A stretch of 61,247 bases of DNA, counting the filler, from Ionaspis alba (taxonomy: Eukaryota): assembly GCA_964255285.1 (NCBI GenBank). It is 4 parts of 4 records of this genome, joined end to end, with 100 filler letters (N's around TTAATTAATTAA, not from the genome) between each part and the next. Parts side by side here need not be neighbours in the genome. Positions count along the whole stretch, not along the records: positions 30,744 to 45,954 come from CAXUUL010000386.1; 3 more parts are not named here. One strand, 5' to 3'. The notes beneath the pieces were generated by a model. It saw only the letters and a program-made list of their open reading frames with translations. It did not search any database and was not told where the DNA came from. Below, one piece after another: positions 7,923-46,054 of the stretch. Both the position numbers and the translations under genes were made by a program. Within the stretch, counting starts at the first letter, position 1, and every line of letters begins with the position of its first letter.

Positions 7923-9684
7923 TCAATAAGCATAAAGCCTCCTCCCCTTCATCCCCTCATCCCCCCTCCTAATAGCCTTATTATCCCTCCAAACCAACGC
8001 CGCATACCCCGCCCCCGCCACCACGCCCACCGCCGTCACAGCAAGACAAATGGTATACCCCTTCGTATACTTCGGGGCATCGGCCGCCAAAAACGTAAAA
8101 GTGGCCACAATCCCCCCCGTATTCCCAAACCCAATCATCCACGCACTGCCAATACTCCGTTCCGCATGTCCCTGCAAATTCATCACATACCAGCAGACGA
8201 CGATCGGGCCGGCGGCGAAGGCGCCCATGGAGACGAGGTGGATGCCCAGGTATTGGACGGAGAAGAAGTTGTGGATGGAGATTAGCAGGGCGAGGCCGAT
8301 GAGGGTGAGGATTGTGCAGCCGAGGATGTAGGGCGAGCGGAGGCGGTGAAGGTCCGAGAGGTAGGCGACGATTATGCAGAGGACGAGGGCAGCGGCGACG
8401 GGGGGGACGGTGTGGAGTTGGGTTTGGACGGTGCTGTAGCCGAGGGCTTTGATTATTGTGGGGGCGAAGTAGGCGAAACCTGGGAAGGAGGAAGGTGTTA
8501 GCAATGTGGGCTGTTTGGAAAGGCGGAAGGACACTACGTACTGTAGATTGGTACGACGATGGCTGCGGATTAAGAAAGTTAGCATGGATATTCTAACGGC
8601 TGGAGCTGATGAGTAGAGGTCTTACCGAAGTACACGATTCCAGCTAGAATATTCTTAAAATCACTGAAAAACCTCAAAATATCCTTGGCTCCTATCTTCT
8701 GTATCCCCTCTTTATCTCTGCCCGTCCTCGTTATCACCCAGCCCCTCTCATCCTCCGTCAACCACTTCGCCTGTTCGGGGAAATCCGCTAGCGTGAAGTA
8801 TGCCACGACGCCAATGATGATCGTCAGGATGCCCTCGAGGATGAACACCCAGCGCCAATTGCTGTAACCGCCAACGCCGTCCATGTTGGCGATCGCGCTG
8901 GCGAAGAGACCTCCGAAGGCGCTGGCGATGAGCACCGAACACCAGTAGAAGGTGAAGCGTTTTTGGGCTTCTTCACGCTTGTACCAGAAGCTGATGAGGT
9001 AGAAACCTATTATTTCGGTTAGTGAGCTGGAGACGAGTTTGCTTGGTGCGGCGCTGAGATAAACATACTGCCTGGGAAAATTCCGGCTTCTGCAAGACCT
9101 AGGAGGAAGCGAGTTGCGAGGAGGCCGCCATAGCTTTGGACTGGATTTTGTTAATTGTGGGCTTGATATGAGGGAGATAGGGGTGCGCGTACCGAATCCT
9201 TGGGCGAGCATAACGACGCCGAACGCAAGAATGCAGCCAGACACTGTTCAGCCATTGTATCAGTAGAGCTTCTGATTCCACGGTCTTGGTAGCACGACTT
9301 ACGCCATATATGAGGTCGAAATCGTTTCAGAAGGATATTCGAAGGAATCTCAAAAAGCACGTAAGGGACGAAGAAGATTGTGAGCGCGACATTCGGCTGA
9401 GTTCCCGTAAGATGCAGGTCTCTGGGCAAGTTCATCGTGAGAGCATTCGATATATTGACACTACACCCTCATGAGCTACCGTCCTGCATAGCGAAAGCGA
9501 AGTTTGCTGCAACTCACCGGTCTAAAAAAGCTGCCACATAGACGATGAACAGCATCGGCATGATCCTCAAATCCATTCTCCGCACCAATCTCTTCTCGTT
9601 GACTGAAGCTGGACATTGCGCATGTGATTCCGCTTTCTCGACTCCGTTGACCTCGAGCGCGTCAGGTGTATTGGAGCCCGACAT
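7923..9684 (-). CDS. MFS transporter, allantoate/nicotinate permease (Dal5/Tna1-like) family
   Basis: EKRLVRRMDLRIMP..AFLDR, FFVPYVLFEIPSNILLKRFRP, SFWYKREEAQKR, WRWVFILEG, GFGNTGGI across several exons; ATG at 9682-9684. Confidence 0.9.
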
Positions 9685-11448: not shown

Positions 11449-12889
11449 ATGGCTACGGCCACTACTTCCTCACCTGTTCCTGCCCTCTCTGCTCCTCCAG
11501 GCGAAGTTTCCAACTTCGATAATCCTGAGACCTTGTGGAAGTGGTTTGTCCTTTGCCAAACAGCATGTCTCTCAATCGCCGGCACTATGTTCTTCTTGAG
11601 GGTGTATATAAGGATGTGGATAAAGCGAACCTGGATATTAGAGGATTGTAGGTCTTCCCGGATCACATACTGTGGGCCCACGGAAACTAACAGCACCTAG
11701 GGTTGTGCTGTGGTGCATTCGTAAGTCCTGATGTCTTTGTTCTCATGAAGTGCACAAAAATCTGACATCCGTCCAGGCAGGCTTGGCAGTATACTGTGGA
11801 CTCTTGACAACCATAATATCAAAGCATGGAGGTACTCATCAATGGAACGTAACCATGGACGACGTCAGAAGCATTCTATATGTATGTTGGTGGTCTTCAA
11901 CCAGATCGGCCCGACAAGCTGACTCACCCAATCTGCAGTTCAATAACATCATACAAATATGGTACGGCATAGCAGCCGCATGCACAAAGTGCGCCATTCT
12001 TGCACTTTATCTCCGAGTCTTCTCACCTCGTCGATGGAGCAAACTCGATATCGCCATCCGTGCCTTCATCGCCATCACTTGCCTCTTCTATCTTGGAATA
12101 AGCATTGCCAAGATCTGTCAATGCATTCCAAGAGCGCGGATATGGGACAAACGTGTGCCTGGCAATTGCGTCGACTTGGCCATATTACTGGACACCAGCG
12201 GTCTGTTCAACATCATCTCTGACGTGTGCATCTTGCTAGTGCCACTGAAGGGCGTCTGGAATCTACAAATGAGCCGACTGCGTAAGATCGGCATCTATTG
12301 CATCTTCACTGTGGGCATTGTGTAAGGTCTATGGTCCTTGCGAACGTTGGTACATAATCTAATACTGCTTCGCATTCTAGCGCTCCAATCTTCAGCATCA
12401 TCGGCTTCGTCATGCGCTTCCGCTTAACCGCAAACCCCGACCAATCATACAACCAAACCCTTCTCTTGCTATGGGCGTTTGTCTTCCCGAACCCCATCCA
12501 CAATCCCCACTCCCACACTAATACCTCTCAGCATGGCCGAACTCGCTACCGGCGTGATGATCATTTGCATGCCCACCCTCCCGGGTATTTTGCAGCACCG
12601 GAAAAAGAAACCTAGTCTAAGCATCATCAATGGCAGCGCCAAATCCCGCAGCCTGCGGTATGGACCCAGAGCCACGGAACAAGACGATATCGACGGCGAC
12701 TACTACCCACTGGAGGGCTGGCCTAAGGACTCGCGACTTCGACCGCCACAACATGCCGTTACGACTGATATTACGGGAGGGGATACGGAGGGAGGCAAAA
12801 AGAGCTTCGATTTTGGGTCAAAGGGCGAGGAAGCGATTCCGCCAGGGGGTATTGTTAAGATGGTGAAGATTGAGCAATCAAATGTGTAG
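11449..12889 (+). CDS. PTH11-like/rhodopsin-domain integral membrane protein (no CFEM domain seen)
   Basis: APPGEVSNFDNP, FFLRVYIR, HGGTHQWNV, KCAILALYLRVF, QCIPRARIWD..PGNC, NIISDVCILLVPL..VWNLQM, ELATGVMIICMPTLP; multiple short introns. Confidence 0.85.
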
Positions 12890-14366: not shown

Positions 14367-14931
14367 TCACAATTTCGATTTGATCTCTGTACACAGTCTC
14401 TGTAAGGCATCCCTGGCCTGCGTGGGCATGCCATCTGCAAGTGGTCTATTGCTCTTTCGATCCACATAGACATGCGTAAATCCTCCAACCGCTCGAACAT
14501 CCTCTGCTCCTCTTTCAAAAACGCCGACTTCATAAGTGACGCTTGACTTCCCGAGCTTGCTGACGCGTAGTCCACAATCCACAATACTGGGATACGCTAC
14601 GGATCCAAAGAAATTGCATGAGGAATGGATAACAAGAGGAGTGATTGTGGCAGTCGGGGGATGCAGTCCACAGTGTTCAATGAGATAGTTGTTGATTATC
14701 GAGTCGAAGCTTGGAAACGACTCAATAACAAGAATCAATCACGAGCTTGGAATACTCACAGAAAGCCATATACACTATTGTTCATGTGGTCATACATATC
14801 GTTATCTGACCTTGACACAGTTCAGCGCGTGTAGCCACGGAGAAGGGAAGCCACCTAGACCATCTCGTCCTGTAGTCTAAATGATATCCATAGTCACTCC
14901 TCCGCCTCTTCTTCAACAACTCTTGAGCCAT
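14367..14931 (-). CDS. Hotdog-fold acyl-CoA thioesterase (4HBT family)
   Basis: Y..RTRW|SDNDMYDHMNNSVY..FDSIINNYLI..HSSCNFFGSVAYP..GLRVSKLGKSSVTYEVGVF..GGFTHVYVDR; two introns. Confidence 0.9.
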
Positions 14932-15289: not shown

Positions 15290-15389
15290 NNNNNNNNNNN
15301 NNNNNNNNNNNNNNNNNNNNNNNNNNNNNNNNNTTAATTAATTAANNNNNNNNNNNNNNNNNNNNNNNNNNNNNNNNNNNNNNNNNNNN
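15290..15389. other. Artificial scaffold-joining linker
   Basis: N44-TTAATTAATTAA-N44 (stops in all six frames); genes are cut on both sides. Confidence 0.97.
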
Positions 15390-17930: not shown

Positions 17931-18565
17931 GCATGGTGATTACTGCAGCATGGATGAGATTCTTGAATACTGTCAGCCGTGACCTGACGTAAGTTAGTTG
18001 TCCGGCAACACGGGTCGCAAGACATCCTATCATGATGATTAGTATGGAACTGTCGTGACCGACATTCCTTTACTTGACACAATACTTCTGGGCAGGAGCA
18101 GTCTTGGTACCTGGATGTCCAAACTTGGATTGAGCTGCNNNNNNNNNNNNNNNNNNNNNNNNNNNNNNNNNNNNNNNNNNNNNNNNNNNNNNNNNNNNNN
18201 NNNNNNNNNNNNNNNNNNNNNNNNNNNNNNNNNNNNNNACTTCTGGGCAGGAGCAGTCTTGGTACCTGGATGTCCAAACTTGGATTGAGCTGCTGAACAA
18301 GAGGATCGACCTGCAAAACAATAAGCTGACATGCTGTATGCTCTGGCATATCAGTCTTCGAAGATATGGTCAGCGTATCAGATTATACGACAACGTATCG
18401 CATCACTTTGCACAGCAATGCGTTGTCAATTGGTCTATCAAGGCTTGGGTATGCGATTTCTGACGGTTGGACTTATATATACCTCGAAGACGGTAATTAA
18501 CGCTTCTCTCTCCTCAATATCGTACTTGAGATCTATTGTGACTTTGACTGCGAAGACTTTCTACA

Positions 18566-20243: not shown

Positions 20244-20991
20244 AGGGGTAAAGCTTACTGAACTATGGAGGGACTAGCTAGGTATGATATACAACGGGGG
20301 GTTGGTATACCCAGCCATCTAATACCCTGAAGTTCAGGGCCTGAACTTTGGCAAAATCGAAATGCTTAAATTTCTCAGTTGTAATTTGCGATAAATTCGT
20401 GTAACTTCATTGACTTATAACGAGATTTTCAATATAAAACTTGTTGGAAATAGTGATATACAGCAAAAATAACCCTTTCACTTATTGTTATGGTCACATG
20501 ACTTAGGTGGCTGAGGCTAGTTCGGGGTTAGCGACCTCGGTCAGGTCTATAGACTGTGTCTCCCAGTTTCCTGGATCGGTAGCTTCACCATACACATTTA
20601 TACTATGATCTATCTATCATTGGAACATGATGTGCGTAGCTCATTCAGTTCTTCGTGTTACAGTTTGTCATTGTCTATACCAACAAATGTTGTATGGTCT
20701 ATAATAAGCAAAAACTGAAATTGTACAGAAACAGCAACAGTACCGGCATTGTCTGACAGCCCTTACTCAACAAAGCTTCGAATTTGGAGTCTACATATCA
20801 GTTATGCCCGATTTTCCAAGCGCTAGTAGTCAGGATCTAAGACCAGTCCGCGAGGTTCGCGGGGACAGCATGGTACCNNNNNNNNNNNNNNNNNNNNNNN
20901 NNNNNNNNNNNNNNNNNNNNNNNNNNNNNNNNNNNNNNNNNNNNNNNNNNNNNNNNNNNNNNNNNNNNNNNNNNNNNCTAGTAGTCAGGAT

Positions 20992-23790: not shown

Positions 23791-24463
23791 TAAAATAGCG
23801 ATACTAAAATATTTTGTCTTTATAATTCCTTCAAATATCCAACATCAGCGAGATGTTCAGTAGAGTAAATTGCGCTTGATGAAATTGCACCTTGGGATTG
23901 TGAGGATTGCCCGAGTACGCACTGCAAAAGATCCCTATCGTCGGCTTACTGCTCATCACAGTTATCTGGTTCCACGCTCCGGCTTACTTGTGCCAGGTCA
24001 TCTGGTCATTGCCAAGGTGTAATCCTTATCGGGACTGCCGAGTCATGCATATATAAGCGCTCAGCGGACCATGAAATAGAACCTTCTCCGTTTAAGCTGC
24101 AATATGAAGGTAATGGGCAGATAGAGGTCAGCGAATGAAAAGCCACGGTTCTGTTGGTCGCTCACGCCGTAGGTCCGACCATGTAAAGCAGTCACAAGCT
24201 CTAATTGGGTTAGCCTCTTGGCAATACACGGTGTATACGAATCCTCCTTAACTTGTCAGACCATTATTTAATGGTCAATAAGTAGTTTGCCCCGTATTCA
24301 TTATGGCAGATTCCAGGTCAGTAAGCTAGGTCCAGAGTTACCTTATAACATTATATCACATTTTGTGCCCACAGAGCCACGTCCAATCTCCTAAGTATTC
24401 AACAACCTGCTGCATTATTGTGAGGTAGTCGAACTAAAGTCTAAATAAACGACTACGCCCAGA

Positions 24464-25598
24464 ATGGAAAGCCCAAATGCCAAGCCCTACAAGCTTCCTT
24501 CAGATGCCGTCTGGTTCAGTCAGTAGCCCGTCATCAATACCCATCTGTTCGTCCAAACACTTTCACTAATATCGATCTAGTCACTGGCTGCTCTTCAGGA
24601 ATTGGTCAAGCATTGGCTCAGCTCGTCGCTCAATCCCCGAACCGGGTGGTGGCAACCGCACGGAAGACCTCCACTCTAGGAACGCTTCCTAATAACGACC
24701 GCGTTCTCAAGCTCGAACTTGATGTCACTTCAATTCCTTCCATTGATGCCGCATTTCGCGCCACATTGGAGAAGTTCGGCCGTATCGATGTTGTCGTCAA
24801 CAATGCCGGTTATACTCTTGCCGGCGACACGGAAAGCGCCGAAGATGGCGAGTCTCGAGCTGTATTCGACACCAACTTCTGGGGTATGGTCGACGTGACC
24901 AAGAAGGCCCTGGGGATCTTCAGGGACGAGAACCCGAAGACTGGTCAGCAGGGTGGTGTGGTTGTCAACGTGAGCTCTTTAGGAGGCTGGTCCGGTTTTC
25001 CCGGCCAGTCGTTCTATCATGCCAGCAAGTTCGCAATGGAGGGATGGACAGAGTCCGTGGCCAAGGAGCTACCTACGTCGTGGAATAGTAAGTGCATTTG
25101 CTTCTACGTCCCTTCATTGTCTTATAGCTTCTGCATGAGAGCAGCCTGTGGCGCATACCGTAGGCTTCGCACTCGATGCGATGCAATCTCAACGTATATG
25201 AAGGCATATCAGGCTCACGTGCACATTATCTAGTCCATCTCACCAATATCGAGCCCGGTGGCGTGAAGACCAACTACGCAACTTCTTCGCTGAAGCCCAT
25301 GGCCAAGAGACACCCAGCTTACAGCGATCCTAGCGCTCCCAGCAATCAGCTGCTCGGCTATATGCAGAGCGAGCAAGGCCGCAGCATGTGGGCAGAGCCA
25401 AGTGCTCTAGCTGCCGCTATCTACCATGTCGTAGGCCGCGGATTGCGTATCCCAATTCGGGTCCCTCTGGGAGCTGATGCCTGGGGTATGATTTCCAAGG
25501 ACCTCGAGGATATCAAGAAAGATCTCGATGAGTTGAAGGACGTCAGTCTGGGCGTCGGCGATGTGAAACAGCTGGAGACGATTGATTTTCTAAAATAG
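24464..25598 (+). CDS. Classical short-chain dehydrogenase/reductase
   Basis: VWFITGCSSGIG, GRIDVVVNNAG, VNVSS, YHASK (YxxxK), IEPGGVKT; introns ~24519-24580 and ~25088-25233. Confidence 0.93.
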
Positions 25599-28632: not shown

Positions 28633-30458
28633 GGTAGATGTATGACTCTGGAGTCAACTCTCAGTGGTAAACTCACAGATTAAAGCAAGAGTGTCGTTGA
28701 AATCAAGAGCTGAGGAAGTGTCGTGAATTTGTTCAGCTGAGAGAAATAGATGATTAGCGGTGACGGTAACACCAAGCAATCAGCCACGAGGCACGTCGCT
28801 CCTTCTTTAACCATTTCTCTTTTGCAGATCCGCATCCCCAGTATCTAGTGGTAGTATAATGTCGTTGCCCCGCATATCGGTAGTAGCCACTTCCCGTCGA
28901 ATTGAAAACGAGTATCTAGTGCTTCGTTCATGTATTTGGCATGGGCCCCGCTCCCCCATAGGAGAAAGGCTAGCAAAGGGATTCGATCCAAAACCGGCCG
29001 GAGATGGTACTGCATCGAGGAAGGTACGAACGGGTGGATGCAAGGGATGCATGCGATGCCTGCGATGCCATGCGTGGGCCAAGTGNNNNNNNNNNNNNNN
29101 NNNNNNNNNNNNNNNNNNNNNNNNNNNNNNNNNNNNNNNNNNNNNNNNNNNNNNNNNNNNNNNNNNNNNNNNNNNNNNNNNNNNNGACTGGTTATGATCA
29201 TGGGGATTAAAGGGACTTGGCATCCCCGCTTTTTGGAAGCGAGAGAATGCTAGTGCATCTGGGAGCCCCGGGGGTGGGAACGGTCAAAGTTGTCTCGGTC
29301 TTGCCCGTTAGGTTTGCCACCTGCCGTTTTGGAATGGTATGTGAGATTTCGAGAATAATGATATACGACGCCGAGGTAAATTGGATAGTCGTGGCTCTAG
29401 GGTATACCGGTCGGAAATATCTCCTAGTTCTTTACAACTCATCTGGGTTGCATGCAGGACAAGCAACGAACGGCCGTTCGAGCGCTAATATGTGCCGTTG
29501 GTAGTACGAGTAAGGAGTCTGCACATCCGTTACACGTTGTCATAGCTATCTATCTGCGTCTGCTTTCCTGTGGTTCTTGCAAATCATTGATGTTCCAAAC
29601 AATGCTCGCGGAACTGCATAGGATCTCAACCCTCAGAAGCACTTCCTTTCATGATGGCCACTATCAAGGCAAATGATGTTCTTGCACTCCTCTTCACCCT
29701 CGCTGGACTGTACGCATATTAAACATACTCTCATTATTGCTTGTTCCCTCAAAGCTGTGTGTCAGGTCCTCCATCTGCACCCAGCGTGCTAATTACGTCT
29801 CTCGTGATAAGGGACTAGTATAGAAAGCTAGTGCATATCACCAGGACTCAGTCGATTCAGTCCTTGCGGTAGCATCGGCGTTCCATCAGTGAGCAGAGTA
29901 TTGCCTGACGACAGAACAAAGCCTCGGACAGGTCTGCTTTGTGAACGATGACCTGGTTGGACTGAAGCTAAAAGTTCCGTCATTGAGAGAGTAGCCTGGT
30001 TGCAGGTGACTGGAGCTGGCAACTAAAAGAAGTTCAACGAGAAAGGTTCTGTAAGATAGCGGAGAGAGCCAAAATATTGAAAACAGGGTAGTAGGGAAGG
30101 CGCGTCAGGCAACAACGCAACAGCTGAAGAAAGACGACGGATAGATGCAGACACTGAAGGCGGCTAGCATTCATCGAGAGATGCGGCTCAAACACAACAA
30201 AACGTATCAATCACGCGTGATGCAATACAATCTGTGAGAGCACAACGCATCGTCAAACTTCCAAAGCTATACATTGAGCCCACCATCCGCTCGCTAATAT
30301 ACAGTACGCCGCTTTTGAGTCCTAACCCGAAGATTCGTGACTCCCTCTCAGTCCACCAGAGATCTAAATACCATCCTCCTCCCCAGTAAATCTACACTCT
30401 CCCGTTCCCAAGCTCTTCATCTCCACCTACTCAACTCCCCAAATTCATGCCTTGAAAA

Positions 30459-30643: not shown

Positions 30644-30743
30644 NNNNNNNNNNNNNNNNNNNNNNNNNNNNNNNNNNNNNNNNNNNNTTAATTAATTAAN
30701 NNNNNNNNNNNNNNNNNNNNNNNNNNNNNNNNNNNNNNNNNNN
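30644..30743. other. Artificial scaffold-joining linker
   Basis: N44-TTAATTAATTAA-N44. Confidence 0.97.
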
Positions 30744-41121: not shown

Positions 41122-42431
41122 TTATGTATCTATCCTAGTGTCTAGTGCAACATTGAATAGAGCACCTTCCGCTGCGTGTGGCGGTGTTTCTGGTTTTCGA
41201 AATCTTCCTTGCATCCAACATCGATACATCTTGAGCTGCTTCTGTCTATTGACAAGAAGTCGCCGATCAACACCGAGGCTGACAATCTCGAAGGCTGGCA
41301 CACTGGATCTGTCCTCCGTTGCCGAGACTGGTCGCGACTCGGTTTTCCCATTTCCGTCCTCCCTCTCATTCGATGCTGTGAGAGTCTTTCCTCCATTCTC
41401 TCCGTTAACCACATCGCGCAGCCAACTCGACCCGTCCCAGATGCCTCTCAACTCCTCCTCATCAAAGAAGTAAACCCTCGTCCCATCCCCACGAACATAA
41501 AAATTCTCCTCCAGCCACCTCCCCTTCTTGAACCTCACCTGCGCCAAATCTCCCCTACCATAATCCCTAAAACAGACCTCCCCACCCGGCTTCAGCGCCC
41601 TCCATACATTCCGCACAGCCTGGGCCCACTCCGTCGGGTTCAAAGCACTGAATATGAACACCATGAGAACCACATCCACGCTCTCAGGATCCACCCCAGG
41701 CGGCAGCGTCTCGGTTGTAGACGCCACATCCCACACCTCTGCCCTAATATGCTTTCCATCATATGCCTCATTCGCCCTAATCAACTCCACAGCCTTCTTC
41801 GAATAATCACACGCATAGATCACGAACTCCGGGTTCTCATTGACCGCTAGGATCGGGAACGCCGTATTGCCCGCTCCCGCCCCAATTTCCAGTATCACAT
41901 TCTTGCCCTTTTCGTCAGGCTCGCGTTTGCGGGTGCATTCAGCCAGAATGGGGAATTCCTGCCGCAGCCACTTGCGGTCTTTGAAGAAATTGGAAGAGTT
42001 GTGGCTGTAGAATTTGTTCCACCATTTCGCGGGCTCGGCGTTGAAGCGTTTTCGGTCGTAGTCTGAGACGCCGTTTGTGCGTTGAAGGGCGTATTGTGCG
42101 GTGCTGTAGGAGGTGTAGAGGGTGTCGGTGGAGGGGTCGACTGTAGCAAGAGATGATCAGGAGATTGTACGCGGATGGAGTGCGGTGGGAAGTTGGAGAA
42201 GGGGCTTACCGTTGTCCCAGGCGTTATAGCTTAGCACTTCATCTGTGTCTTGTAGGTAACGGGTGCCGAATTGGAAAGGATCGGTGCGTTTCAGGGTCTT
42301 GGAGGGGTCGTGGGTGCGCTGGTAGGGGATTTTAGGGGGCTGGACGTGAGCGGCTATGTTTTGGATTTCTGAGAAGCGGAGAGCGAACTTTGAATTTGGT
42401 GATTGGTTGTCTGGTGGACTTTGCTGAAGGG
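41122..42431 (-). CDS. TRM140: tRNA m3C methyltransferase (Trm140/Abp140/METTL2-6 family); start lies in N gap
   Basis: RTDPFQFGTRYL..YNAWDN, KWWNKFY..NFFKDRKWLRQEFP, LEIGAGAGNT, FRDYGRGDLAQVRFKKGR..ENFYVRGDGTRVYFF, RLLVNRQKQLKMYRCWMQ. Confidence 0.92.
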
Positions 42432-42531
42432 NNNNNNNNNNNNNNNNNNNNNNNNNNNNNNNNNNNNNNNNNNNNNNNNNNNNNNNNNNNNNNNNNNNNN
42501 NNNNNNNNNNNNNNNNNNNNNNNNNNNNNNN

Positions 42532-45392
42532 ATCCCACCCAATTTCTGGTCCAAGTCTGGGCAGTTCATCCGCCACGCTTTGCACATCCTTGTCACTTGA
42601 ATACAAGTCAGCTGAGAACGCGAGATGCATTGGGAATAAATATACCCTCTTCCACTGACACAGATTACAACATCTTGGTCTTTCCTCATTGTCTTGGCCA
42701 GCTCAATAGCGCCCCAGACAGCATGAGAAGTTTCTAGAGCGGGAATGATCCCCTCCATCTCACTGAGCAGCTTGAACCCCTCGAGAGCTTGAGCATCGGT
42801 AACGGCAATAAATGTTGCGCGTCCTGAATCTTTCCAAGCACTTAGCTCTGGCCTGTTGAGATATTTAGTGAAACATTATGATATTATTGATGACGTGACA
42901 CATCAGGGAAATATGCAGACTCTACTCACCCAACCCCAGCATAGTCCAGACCAGCTGAGATGGAATGGGTATCTTGTATCTGTCCGTGCTTATCCTGCAA
43001 CACATATGTCCTACTTCCATGCAAGACCCCCTTAGTGCCGCCAGTTAAAGAGGCGGAATGCCTCTTCGACTCAAGGCCGTCACCCCCAGCTTCGACTCCC
43101 AAAAGCTTCACACTTGGATCATTAATAAACGGATAAAACATTCCTAAAGCATTACTGCCCCCACCGATGCAGGCAACAACTGCATCCGGTAGTTTGTTTC
43201 GTTGTTCTAGCATTTGGGCCTTCGTCTCATCCCCGATGACAGTCTGAAAAGTGCGCACGATCGTGGGAAAGGGGTGTGGACCAATTGCTGAACCGATAAT
43301 GTGATAGGCGGTATCCACCTTCGTGATCCAAACTCGAAAACTCTCATTTACGGCGTCTCTAAGAGTTCGTGAACCTGCCTCAACAGGGATGACCTGAGCA
43401 CCAAGTAATTTGATCCTGAATACGTTCAGTGCCTGTCTCCTGACATCTTCCTATAGAGCTGTTAGATATAAACTTGCAACACTGTCCCAAGCCTGTGAAC
43501 TTACTGCTCCCATGAAGATTGTGCACTTCATGTTGAATTTAGCACAGACTGTAGCAGTTGCCACACCATGCATGCCAGCACCGGTCTGAGCAATGATTTC
43601 AGTCTTACCCAAGCGACGAGCCAGAAGAATCTGTGCCAGAGCGCTGTTGATCTTATGACTTCCAGTATGGTTCAGATCCTCACGCTTCAACCAAATGGTA
43701 GCTCCGCCAACATGTTCGGTAAGGCGTTCTGCGACATGAAGATGCGCAGGCCTTCCTAAATAGGGGTAGTGTGATCGAAATTCTGCCCAAAACTCGGGGT
43801 CATTCCGAATTTTATGAAAACCTGCCTCCAATTCTGAAAGGCAATTCATTAGCGATTCTGGGGCATAGGAACCCCCAAATTCACCAAAGCGTGTAGAAAA
43901 GAGTTCTGGATCTTCTCCCTCAGCATTCATGGCCTCTACTTGATCAAGCAGTCCTGACTGGTTGCCATTTGAATAAATGGTACCATTCATCTGCGCGGTA
44001 CCATTCACCTGCGCGGTACCATTCACCTGCGCGGNNNNNNNNNNNNNNNNNNNNNNNNNNNNNNNNNNNNNNNNNNNNNNNNNNNNNNNNNNNNNNNNNN
44101 NNNNNNNNNNNNNNNNNNNNNNNNNNNNNNNNNNACCATTCACCTGCGCGGCACCATTCACTTGCACGGCACCATTCACCTGCACGGCACCATTTAGCTC
44201 TTGAGCTTCAGTCAAGGTTTCAATAATACTAACTTTTCGAGTCGTTCGACACTCTGGCGAATTCCTCCTTCCACATATCTCAGCGCAGTATTCCTCGGCA
44301 ACTTTGGCCCGCTCTCCAGGAACGGCCTCGGCCAAGGTTGTGATAATTTGACTGCCAATGACAACACCATCTGCTATGCTGGCTACACTCAAGAAGTGAT
44401 CTCTTGTGCTGACACCGAAACCAACTGCTGTTGGGACATTGCCAGAGTATTGCTTGATTCGTTTCAAGAGCTGTGGTAGATCGGCATTAAGAGTACCTGT
44501 TGCACCCGTGACGCCCATACGTGATACAACGTAGACGAATGAGTCCGCAAGTTTGCAGAGTAATTTGAGCCGGCTCTCAGAAGTGGCTGGAACAAAAAGT
44601 CAGAAGCTAAGCAGGTCGGACGAATAATGTGAGAAGGGCTTACAAGGGGCGATAAGAGGTACGTATGACAGTCTGTATACAATTGTCAGTGAGGATAATT
44701 TATCGTAATAGAAGTATCATGACTTACCCGCCCTTCGCACAGAAATTCCTGAATTTCACAGCCTCGTGTGGAGGAAGATCTACCACAATAAAGCCATTCA
44801 CACCAGCCGCACGACAATCATTCAACAATCGCTCCTCGCCATAGCTCAATAGTGGATTGTAATAACCCATTAATAGCAGCGGTGCTCTGAGACCTCTTTT
44901 CCGAGCTTCCCTTACCATCCCTAGGGTTGACTCTATGGTGACGTTATTCGCAAGCGCTTGCTATACATATGATGAGCAAACATGCAGATAACACATGAGA
45001 ATCAACGAACAGTATTTGCGTTCTGAATCGTAGGCCCATCCGCGAAGGGATCCGTGAAAGGCTGGCGTTAATATTAGAAAGATCGGTGAGTATCAAAGAG
45101 ACTACTAACAACACCGAGTTCAATGAGATCTGCGAAAAAAAGTTAAGAACGTAAGTCAATCGAGTCGAGATATTGCATACCTGCACCCCCAGCTTCTAAT
45201 CCTAATATGATATCTACAGCTTCTTCAACAGTAGGATATCCAGCTGTGACAAAAGTCACAAAGGCAGGCTATATCATAAATCAGCAATGCCTTCATGAAC
45301 CTCATATCAATACACATAGCTTCCGCCACTAAAGGGATATATACCCGATTTTCTTCTTTGCATTGCGCAAATGTCTGAACAATAGCCTCCAT
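42532..45392 (-). CDS. TRP5: Fused alpha-beta tryptophan synthase-like protein with a non-canonical beta active site; last few codons in N gap
   Basis: Alpha: [44 protein letters not shown]. Beta: [52 protein letters not shown]. About nine introns. Symbol denotes family; orthology is doubtful. Confidence 0.9.
43980..44193 (-). repeat. Coding 18-bp minisatellite (NGxAQV hexapeptide) in the TrpS alpha-beta linker, with an unresolved N gap
   Basis: Units accattcacctgcgcggt on both sides of the gap 44035-44134. Confidence 0.9.
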
Positions 45393-45954: not shown

Positions 45955-46054
45955 NNNNNNNNNNNNNNNNNNNNNNNNNNNNNNNNNNNNNNNNNNNNTT
46001 AATTAATTAANNNNNNNNNNNNNNNNNNNNNNNNNNNNNNNNNNNNNNNNNNNN
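45955..46054. other. Artificial scaffold-joining linker
   Basis: N44-TTAATTAATTAA-N44. Confidence 0.97.

Follow-up and report, generated by a model that had tools for sequence, protein, structure and literature searches.

In a 61,247-nucleotide stretch of DNA from Ionaspis alba (GenBank assembly GCA_964255285.1), here called the window, we found a gene closely related to TRP5, which encodes the bifunctional tryptophan synthase of fungi. The gene, in the part of the window taken from CAXUUL010000386.1, is an intact, spliced, and transcribed TRP5-type fusion with an alpha domain, a linker, and a beta domain that uses pyridoxal phosphate (PLP). It is an accessory paralogue, other than the organism's tryptophan synthase, as shown from the public runs X1, X3, and X4, and it belongs to a fungal family in which Gln and Met replace beta-Glu109 and beta-Gln114. 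As the altered copy is conserved in several moulds, it probably has a different job from tryptophan synthesis, and we tentatively suggest that this job is the release of indole.

Gene model, transcripts, and a second, canonical copy

The structure of the gene is given in Table 1. Eight of its nine introns correspond to exact GT..AG joints in RNA-type spliced contigs from X3 and/or X4. At the ninth (45062-45109), the RNA-type joint runs from 45058 to 45110 with three letters between, and the acceptor was placed by hand. The reading frame, reported as open in a first-pass annotation of this DNA made from the sequence alone, is uninterrupted in each of the ten exons except where two N masks of 100 bases fall (42432-42531 and 44035-44134). 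The first mask covers the last codons and the stop; in a relative found on the metagenome contig L003, the protein ends in GWDLRL, followed by a stop. Pfam matches to Trp_syntA (PF00290) and PALP (PF00291) were found in the fusion order alpha then beta. The second mask lies within a tandem repeat in the linker, and the 18-base period of the repeat keeps the frame across it. Close relatives have one repeat unit, versus about 12 in the window gene. A 207-base in-frame segment that is spliced out in one contig spans most of this repeat, and the expansion may be tolerated because it can be removed in this way.

Residues are numbered as in Salmonella TrpB. The alignment to 1k8x_B is ungapped over beta 4-136 and beta 138-308, which places the changed residues at beta-109 and beta-114 and the PLP lysine at Lys87. 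On the minus strand, positions 43565-43591 read GCT CAG ACC GGT GCT GGC ATG CAT GGT, encoding AQTGAGMHG, and the Gln and Met codons of the TrpB motif named in the first-pass annotation lie exactly where it put them. That annotation had also described the rest of both active sites as intact. We agree: the window gene has alpha Glu49, Asp60, and Thr183 and, in the beta domain, His86 and Lys87 (HKIN), GGGSN, Arg141, Asp305, Glu350 (ALE), and SGRG. Counts in Table 1 and in the text below refer to a set of 12 full-length paralogues and 73 full-length canonical fungal TRP5 proteins.

Table 1. Coordinates of the paralogue, its diagnostic residues, and a neighbouring gene in the window
Feature	Position	Strand	Remarks
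TRP5-type alpha-linker-beta gene (paralogue)	45392 down to ~42432	minus	Ten exons, nine GT..AG introns
Start codon, ATG	45392-45390	minus	
Exons (plus-strand coordinates)	45345-45392, 45181-45268, 45110-45129, 45011-45061, 44728-44960		
Remaining exons (plus-strand coordinates)	44644-44672, 43505-44586, 42930-43450, 42646-42852, 42532-42595		
Alpha active-site stretch	45038-45121	minus	Glu49, 45119-45121; Phe58, 45044-45046; Asp60, 45038-45040; intron 45062-45109 inside
18-base tandem repeat, ~12 units	43979-44194	minus	Alpha-beta linker; encodes (A/T)(A/V)QVNG; partly under N mask 44035-44134
In-frame GTTAGT..AG segment, 207 bases	44027-44233	minus	Spliced out in one X3 RNA-type contig; joint 44024/44232, cut +2, side 244
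Beta-Lys87, AAG	43652-43654	minus	PLP Schiff-base lysine, kept
Beta-Ser90, AGC	43643-43645	minus	Ser in 10/12 paralogues; Asn in 73/73 canonical
Beta-Gln109, CAG	43586-43588	minus	Replaces indole-activating Glu; Gln in 12/12 paralogues, Glu in 73/73 canonical
Beta-Met114, ATG	43571-43573	minus	Replaces Gln that stabilises the closed state; Met in 12/12 paralogues, Gln in 73/73 canonical
Beta 165-186, end of COMM domain	43301-43366	minus	Nine clade-specific changes: A173S, L/M174F, A176V, V178I, V179T, L181V, T184A, H185Y, Y186H
Beta-Ile231, ATC	43166-43168	minus	Canonical Val; carbonyl of residue 231 is a monovalent-cation ligand
Asp305-Tyr306-Ala307	42938-42946 (Asp305, 42944-42946)	minus	Salt-bridge Asp and indole sub-site wall kept; Pro307 to Ala
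Methyltransferase gene	41125-42156		Window neighbour of the paralogue

The contig evidence comes from X1, X3, and X4. X1, a DNA-like run that contains 95% of the sampled words, is probably the source sample and hence lends no independent support, while X3 and X4 come from different studies, represent two related organisms, and have contigs 95-99% alike. One X1 Logan contig (1,541 bases, depth 111) spans 42532-44020 and differs from the window at two letters (42864 and 43001), neither of them in the motif. Spliced RNA-type contigs from X3 and X4 also span the motif and differ solely at 43538, 43553, and 43562, so they have the same Gln and Met codons as the window. These codons occur again in the metagenome contigs L001 and L003. 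A sequencing error, considered unlikely in the first-pass annotation, is ruled out by these contigs.

A second TRP5-type sequence with canonical residues is present in all three runs. In X1, the canonical-type contig has a depth of 106 (111 for the paralogue), aligns at about 43542-43606, and has T, G, and T on the plus strand at 43572-43574; its coding strand thus reads GGA CAG, for Gly113-Gln114, and its overhang was translated by hand as AKFGMKCTVYM. The overhang of the X3 contig, colinear and in frame, translates by hand to IIAETGAGQH, and that of the X4 contig gives SHKINNALGQ. Depths in X3 and X4 are k-mer depths of contigs, a rough guide only and not a measurement of expression: about 990 for the canonical-type contig in X3 and 227 (mean of its bin) for that in X4, versus 2-6 for the paralogue contigs in both runs. 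These lineages therefore possess a canonical enzyme, and the window gene is an additional one, weakly represented among the transcripts.

In a further run, X2, which we did not use, paralogue contigs identical to the window occur at a depth of 2-5 beside contigs of depth 33, a pattern that could reflect carry-over or a low-abundance organism. One of the depth-33 contigs joins an alpha segment directly to a beta segment (window 44726-44795 and 43222-43302), skipping 1,423 bases. It may represent a deleted TRP5-like copy in an organism B or an assembly chimera.

A fungal family with Gln109 and Met114

We used the motif exon as the query to collect the 120 nearest clusters at 90% identity. Of these, 92 have ETGAGQHG, 27 have QTGAGMHG, and 1, from Aspergillus brasiliensis, has PSGAGMHG. 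Whether AQTGAGMHG homologues exist in other fungi, and how they are related, was a question raised in the first-pass annotation; they are numerous, and in our tree they form one clade. The named members come from Penicillium (P. oxalicum, P. brevicompactum, P. egyptiacum, and "P. occitanis," to which cluster members add P. bialowiezense), Talaromyces (T. pinophilus and T. verruculosus), and Aspergillus (A. alliaceus, A. caelatus, A. pseudocaelatus, A. niger, A. welwitschiae, and A. brasiliensis, to which cluster members add A. awamori), together with one Chaetothyriales and one Phaeosphaeriaceae sequence. The taxonomic distribution is patchy. The closest matches, 85-93% identical, are metagenome or Logan sequences that have the intron read-through tail of the window in common with it.

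When a library of 1.8 billion proteins was searched, 138 of the 150 best representatives showed the motif. At positions 109 and 114, 131 have Glu/Gln and 4 have Glu/Met (P0355, P0368, P0372, and P0433), and there is a single case each of Ala/Gln (P0384, which may be a plant TSB-like protein), Lys/Gln (P0390), and Gln/Met. The Gln/Met representative is the window's own protein, and Gln109 is unique to the family in that sample. A protein atlas search returned generic tryptophan synthase clusters only, and a literature search of main texts yielded no publication about a TRP5 paralogue of fungi that lacks this Glu. Database entries call family members plainly "tryptophan synthase," a name that would mislead metabolic reconstructions.

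The window itself appears to come from a poorly sampled lichen-forming lineage and not from Eurotiales, the main source of named paralogues, because a PIG-S protein encoded on the same contig (36307-38258), 6 kb from the paralogue, has its best named relatives, at about 72% identity, in the Lecanoromycetes Trapelia, Xylographa, and Lambiella; by this gene the organism is Lecanoromycete-like. The canonical TRP5 proteins of Ptychographa and Lambiella, from the same group, have Glu109 and Gln114. In the group of A. niger, A. welwitschiae, and A. awamori, most of the gene models either start downstream of the alpha domain or have been divided between two neighbouring models, and three A. brasiliensis proteins read Pro109-Ser110 (P0018, P0024, P0472-P0480, P0030, P0490, and P0492 in all). 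Within section Nigri, the family appears to be in decay.

For phylogenetic analysis we used 43 rows and 722 columns in an IQ-TREE quick search. The 14 paralogues form one clade with a Shimodaira-Hasegawa-like approximate likelihood ratio test (SH-aLRT) value of 100 and a stem length of 0.32. The window protein lies inside it and has the full combination of Gln109, Met114, Phe174, Tyr185, Ile231, and alpha-Phe58. A starred group unites the clade with canonical proteins of Leotiomycetes, separate from those of Lecanoromycetes, and an approximately unbiased (AU) test rejects a grouping of paralogues with Lecanoromycetes and Candelariomycetes (P = 0.014, for a group named after the tree had been seen). 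The tree holds canonical TRP5 proteins from classes other than Eurotiomycetes and Sordariomycetes, so the duplication cannot be placed relative to these two. The canonical match nearest to the paralogue, P0029, is Leotiomycete-like. Species relationships are not recovered within the clade, where A. alliaceus is placed beside P. egyptiacum and the Chaetothyriales sequence and at a distance from A. caelatus. The family would stem either from an old duplication with many losses or from horizontal spread.

The window protein shares 87% identity with the Talaromyces paralogue, versus only 74% with canonical proteins of its own class and 71-76% with the canonical proteins of Lecanoromycetes, Leotiomycetes, and Dothideomycetes. 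Among canonical proteins, identity between classes is 84%. Ratios of nonsynonymous to synonymous substitution rates (dN/dS) against the metagenome relatives are 0.235 (690 codons, L003) and 0.115 (255 codons, L001), which supports purifying selection on the family as judged from codon comparisons.

Most catalytic residues are shared with the canonical enzymes. In 12/12 paralogues, the alpha domain keeps Glu49, Asp60, Thr183, Gly184, Gly234, and Ser235, which serve in catalysis and phosphate binding, and the beta domain keeps His86, Lys87, Thr110, Gly111-113, His115, and GGGSN, which bind PLP and serine. Arg141 is also kept in 12/12; Asp305 is kept in 9/12, the window protein included, and the tunnel residues Leu279 and His280 are the same as in canonical fungal enzymes. 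Differences fixed in the paralogues were counted at positions invariant or nearly so in the canonical proteins. In the beta domain, these are Q15S, V17A/S, N90S, E109Q, Q114M, Y133F, A173S, L/M174F, A176V, V178I, V179T, L181V, T184A, H185Y, Y186H, S206T, G221N, V231I, S268A (the window protein keeps Ser), V282S, P307A, and F333L, and in the alpha domain, they are Y22F, I58F, E134H, V200I, and V253A. Alpha-58 is Phe in 12/12 paralogues versus Ile in 67/73 canonical proteins, and beta-307 is Ala in 10/12 versus Pro in 73/73. Of the 32-33 beta positions that discriminate between the two sets, eight or nine lie within the 22 residues of beta 165-186 (binomial P of 3e-4 to 6e-5, for a stretch chosen afterwards). 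On the evidence of the alignment, a wider remodelling beyond positions 109 and 114 is shown at beta 165-186 and alpha-58, which belong to the alpha-beta interface, and in the surroundings of the cation site (231, 268, and 307).

A review of the Salmonella enzyme (PMC9512447) describes the roles of these positions. The COMM domain and alpha loop 2 account for most of the alpha-beta contacts. Indole cannot be activated without Glu109, and Gln114 hydrogen bonds with Asn145 and Arg148 in the closed state only; Q114A destabilises that state, which prevents the escape of indole. The carbonyls of residues 231, 232, 268, 304, 306, and 308 form the monovalent-cation site, which sets the size of the indole sub-site. 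Read in this light, the changes in the paralogue affect positions for indole activation, closure, the cation site, and the inter-domain interface and spare those for the chemistry of both active sites.

Possible functions and genomic neighbourhood

By analogy with the pair of tryptophan synthase alpha (TSA) and TSB-like proteins of plants, the paralogue may be a fused single-chain indole-releasing enzyme, an assignment that we put forward at somewhat less than even confidence. In such an enzyme, the alpha site would still cleave indole-3-glycerol phosphate (IGP), and the beta site would still bind PLP and L-serine and form the aminoacrylate that switches the alpha site on. Without the Glu109 carboxylate, indole would not be activated for C-C bond formation, and without the hydrogen bonds of Gln114, the closed, indole-trapping state would be weaker, so that free indole would leave. 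The first-pass annotation had invoked a plant precedent for indole release without this Glu, and the precedent is real (PMC12727527): plant TSB-like proteins have lost the equivalent Glu (to Ala), have Glu in place of Asp305, make no Trp, and cause TSA to release indole. Restoring the Glu in the plant protein brings back Trp synthesis at low levels.

We are more guarded about the larger scenario suggested by the same analogy, in which fungi would have independently evolved a single-chain indole synthase whose beta half acts as an internal activator, with a patchy, perhaps horizontal, spread among lichen-forming fungi, Aspergillus, Penicillium, and Talaromyces. If indole is released, the enzyme would supply these fungi with indole independently of Trp, for use in signalling or in auxin-type or alkaloid chemistry, and would be a case of convergence with the plant TSB-like system described in 2025. 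The pseudoenzyme-type indole route just found in plants would then have arisen a second time, independently, and lichens and common moulds would contain an indole source that has gone unrecognised. The first-pass proposal of a specialised paralogue is supported by the canonical second copy, the monophyletic family, and purifying selection; its further suggestion, that the enzyme would release indole or use another nucleophile, is an inference.

Several points weigh against indole release. We found no assay of an E109Q enzyme in the literature, and residual Trp synthesis is possible, with Gln109 still able to accept a hydrogen bond from the indole N-H. The plant solution differs in combining Glu to Ala with Asp305 to Glu, while the paralogues keep Asp305 (9/12) and Arg141. 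The strict conservation of the serine and PLP sites would fit a real beta reaction as well as an activator role. Met114 occurs naturally beside Glu109 in 4 of the 138 motif-bearing representatives, so Met114 alone is not disabling. A Pfam scan revealed no biosynthetic core gene near the paralogue in the window, and synteny with the 92%-identical relative on L003 is lacking. The A. niger-complex models without an alpha domain, together with Pro109/Ser110 in A. brasiliensis, indicate that the gene is dispensable and decays in places. No report that these fungi produce free indole is known to us, although no search was made for one.

It is less likely that the beta site instead has a changed chemistry, in which the aminoacrylate reacts with another nucleophile, or with another atom of indole, to give a non-Trp beta-substituted alanine for some metabolite. 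PLP and serine residues are fully conserved while the pocket positions 109, 114, 174, 185/186, 282, and 307 change together, as such a shift would predict, and secondary-metabolism genes typically show such a patchy distribution at odds with the tree. Engineered TrpB enzymes without the catalytic Glu accept other nucleophiles (PDB 8egy, "Engineered tyrosine synthase (TmTyrS1)"). However, with the alpha catalytic residues kept in 12/12 paralogues, indole derived from IGP remains the most likely partner, no biosynthetic cluster surrounds the gene in the window or in L003, and no candidate product is known. The key change in TmTyrS1 (8egy) is reportedly Glu to Gly. If another amino acid is made, the family would be a natural template for TrpB biocatalysis.

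We consider it rather improbable that the enzyme is still a tryptophan synthase, that is, a slower or differently regulated isozyme for which Gln109 suffices in this sequence background. Gln could still hydrogen bond with the indole N-H, the other catalytic residues, the fusion architecture, and tunnel residues Leu279/His280 match the canonical fungal enzymes, and the gene is under purifying selection. However, none of the 73 canonical fungal proteins lacks Glu109, which is also present in 135 of the 138 nearest motif-bearing representatives (131 with Gln114 and 4 with Met114), and the carboxylate is called essential for indole activation in PMC9512447. The plant protein regains Trp synthesis, at a low level, when Glu is put back (PMC12727527). 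The presence of a canonical copy with a far higher RNA-contig depth also speaks against an isozyme, and the length of the stem branch, together with some 30 fixed changes, favours a shift in function.

There is a small chance that the gene is a duplicate that is catalytically idle or in decay, acting as a regulatory pseudoenzyme (e.g., in mixed dimers with canonical TRP5) or nearing loss. The low RNA-contig depth relative to the canonical copy, the truncated or split A. niger-complex models, Pro109/Ser110 in A. brasiliensis, a frameshift near beta-18 in L003, and a dN/dS of 0.235, which is not very low, are in line with decay. Against it, the window gene is intact and correctly spliced, the catalytic residues of both domains are conserved in 12/12 paralogues across several fungal classes, dN/dS is well below 1, and identity to the Talaromyces paralogue is 87%. 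A sequencing or assembly artefact or contamination is ruled out by the same codons in X3 and X4, in 27 protein clusters, and in the metagenome contigs L001 and L003. Whatever the reaction, nature has in this clade already set up an experiment on the re-tuning of alpha-beta coupling, with Glu109 replaced and the two active sites intact in all other respects.

The neighbourhood gives no functional clue. On L003 (1-15433), the 92%-identical copy is flanked by sequence of 22-35% G+C resembling the product of repeat-induced point mutation (RIP-like) and by a divergent MFS transporter gene, and this contig shares with the window solely the gene and about 100 upstream bases, so the locus is not conserved even between close relatives. 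The L003 frameshift lies in a run of C's and may be a read error or the mark of a pseudogene. Besides the methyltransferase gene of Table 1, the neighbours in the window encode an amidase, PIG-S, Sec24, a WD40 protein, and a transcription factor of the zinc-cluster type, all of them ordinary genes, and no nonribosomal peptide synthetase, polyketide synthase, or prenyltransferase was found there in the Pfam scan. Gcn4-type TGASTCA sites are absent between the ATG and 46500, and the whole window has 6 versus 11 expected, too weak a signal to interpret.

Fragments of metabolism-type genes lie between 8582 and 25230: MFS (8582-9247), a fungal rhodopsin domain (11732-12322), 4HBT thioesterase (14370-14738), cytochrome P450 (15923-16330), and a short-chain dehydrogenase (24445-25230). 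They are 18-35 kb from the paralogue in window coordinates, and no link between them and the paralogue was seen. The window has eight 100-base masks (15290-15389, 18139-18238, 20878-20977, 29086-29185, 30644-30743, 42432-42531, 44035-44134, and 45955-46054); three are split 44+12+44, and two touch the paralogue, at the linker repeat and at the last codons.

Comparison with known systems

The closest known system is the canonical bifunctional tryptophan synthase of fungi (yeast TRP5 type, EC 4.2.1.20). It shares with the paralogue the alpha-linker-beta fusion with PF00290 and PF00291, alpha Glu49 and Asp60, and beta Lys87, GGGSN, Arg141/Asp305, and Glu350. The paralogue differs in Gln109, Met114, and about 30 further fixed substitutions and in its separate, long-stemmed clade. 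It coexists with a canonical copy in X1, X3, and X4, and its taxonomic distribution is patchy.

The plant TSB-like pseudoenzyme (Florean et al. 2025, PMC12727527) is likewise a Glu-less TrpB paralogue that stands beside a canonical enzyme with the fold otherwise kept. In plants, Glu is changed to Ala (Ser or Pro in Solanaceae) and Asp305 (Asp300 in Thermotoga) to Glu, whereas the fungal paralogue has Gln109 and Met114 and keeps Asp305. The plant protein is a separate subunit that borrows TSA, while the beta domain of the paralogue is fused to its own alpha domain. Plant TSB-like descends from plant TSB, and the paralogue arose independently, in a fungal clade.

The Salmonella mutants beta-Q114A and beta-Q114N (PDB 7KQ9, 6C73, 6DZO, and 2J9Y) resemble the paralogue in the loss of the Gln114 side-chain amide. 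They are laboratory mutants with Glu109 intact, in which Q114A destabilised the closed state and Q114N led to a suicide side reaction, whereas the paralogue has Met114. In engineered TrpB without the catalytic Glu (e.g., TmTyrS1, PDB 8egy), the same Glu has been removed and the substrate scope changed. Unlike the paralogue, TmTyrS1 is a stand-alone, laboratory-evolved beta subunit with no alpha domain. BX1 and IGL of grasses are stand-alone IGP lyases of the alpha type, active without a beta partner. If the paralogue releases indole, its net product would be the same as theirs, free indole from IGP, but the paralogue keeps a complete beta domain.

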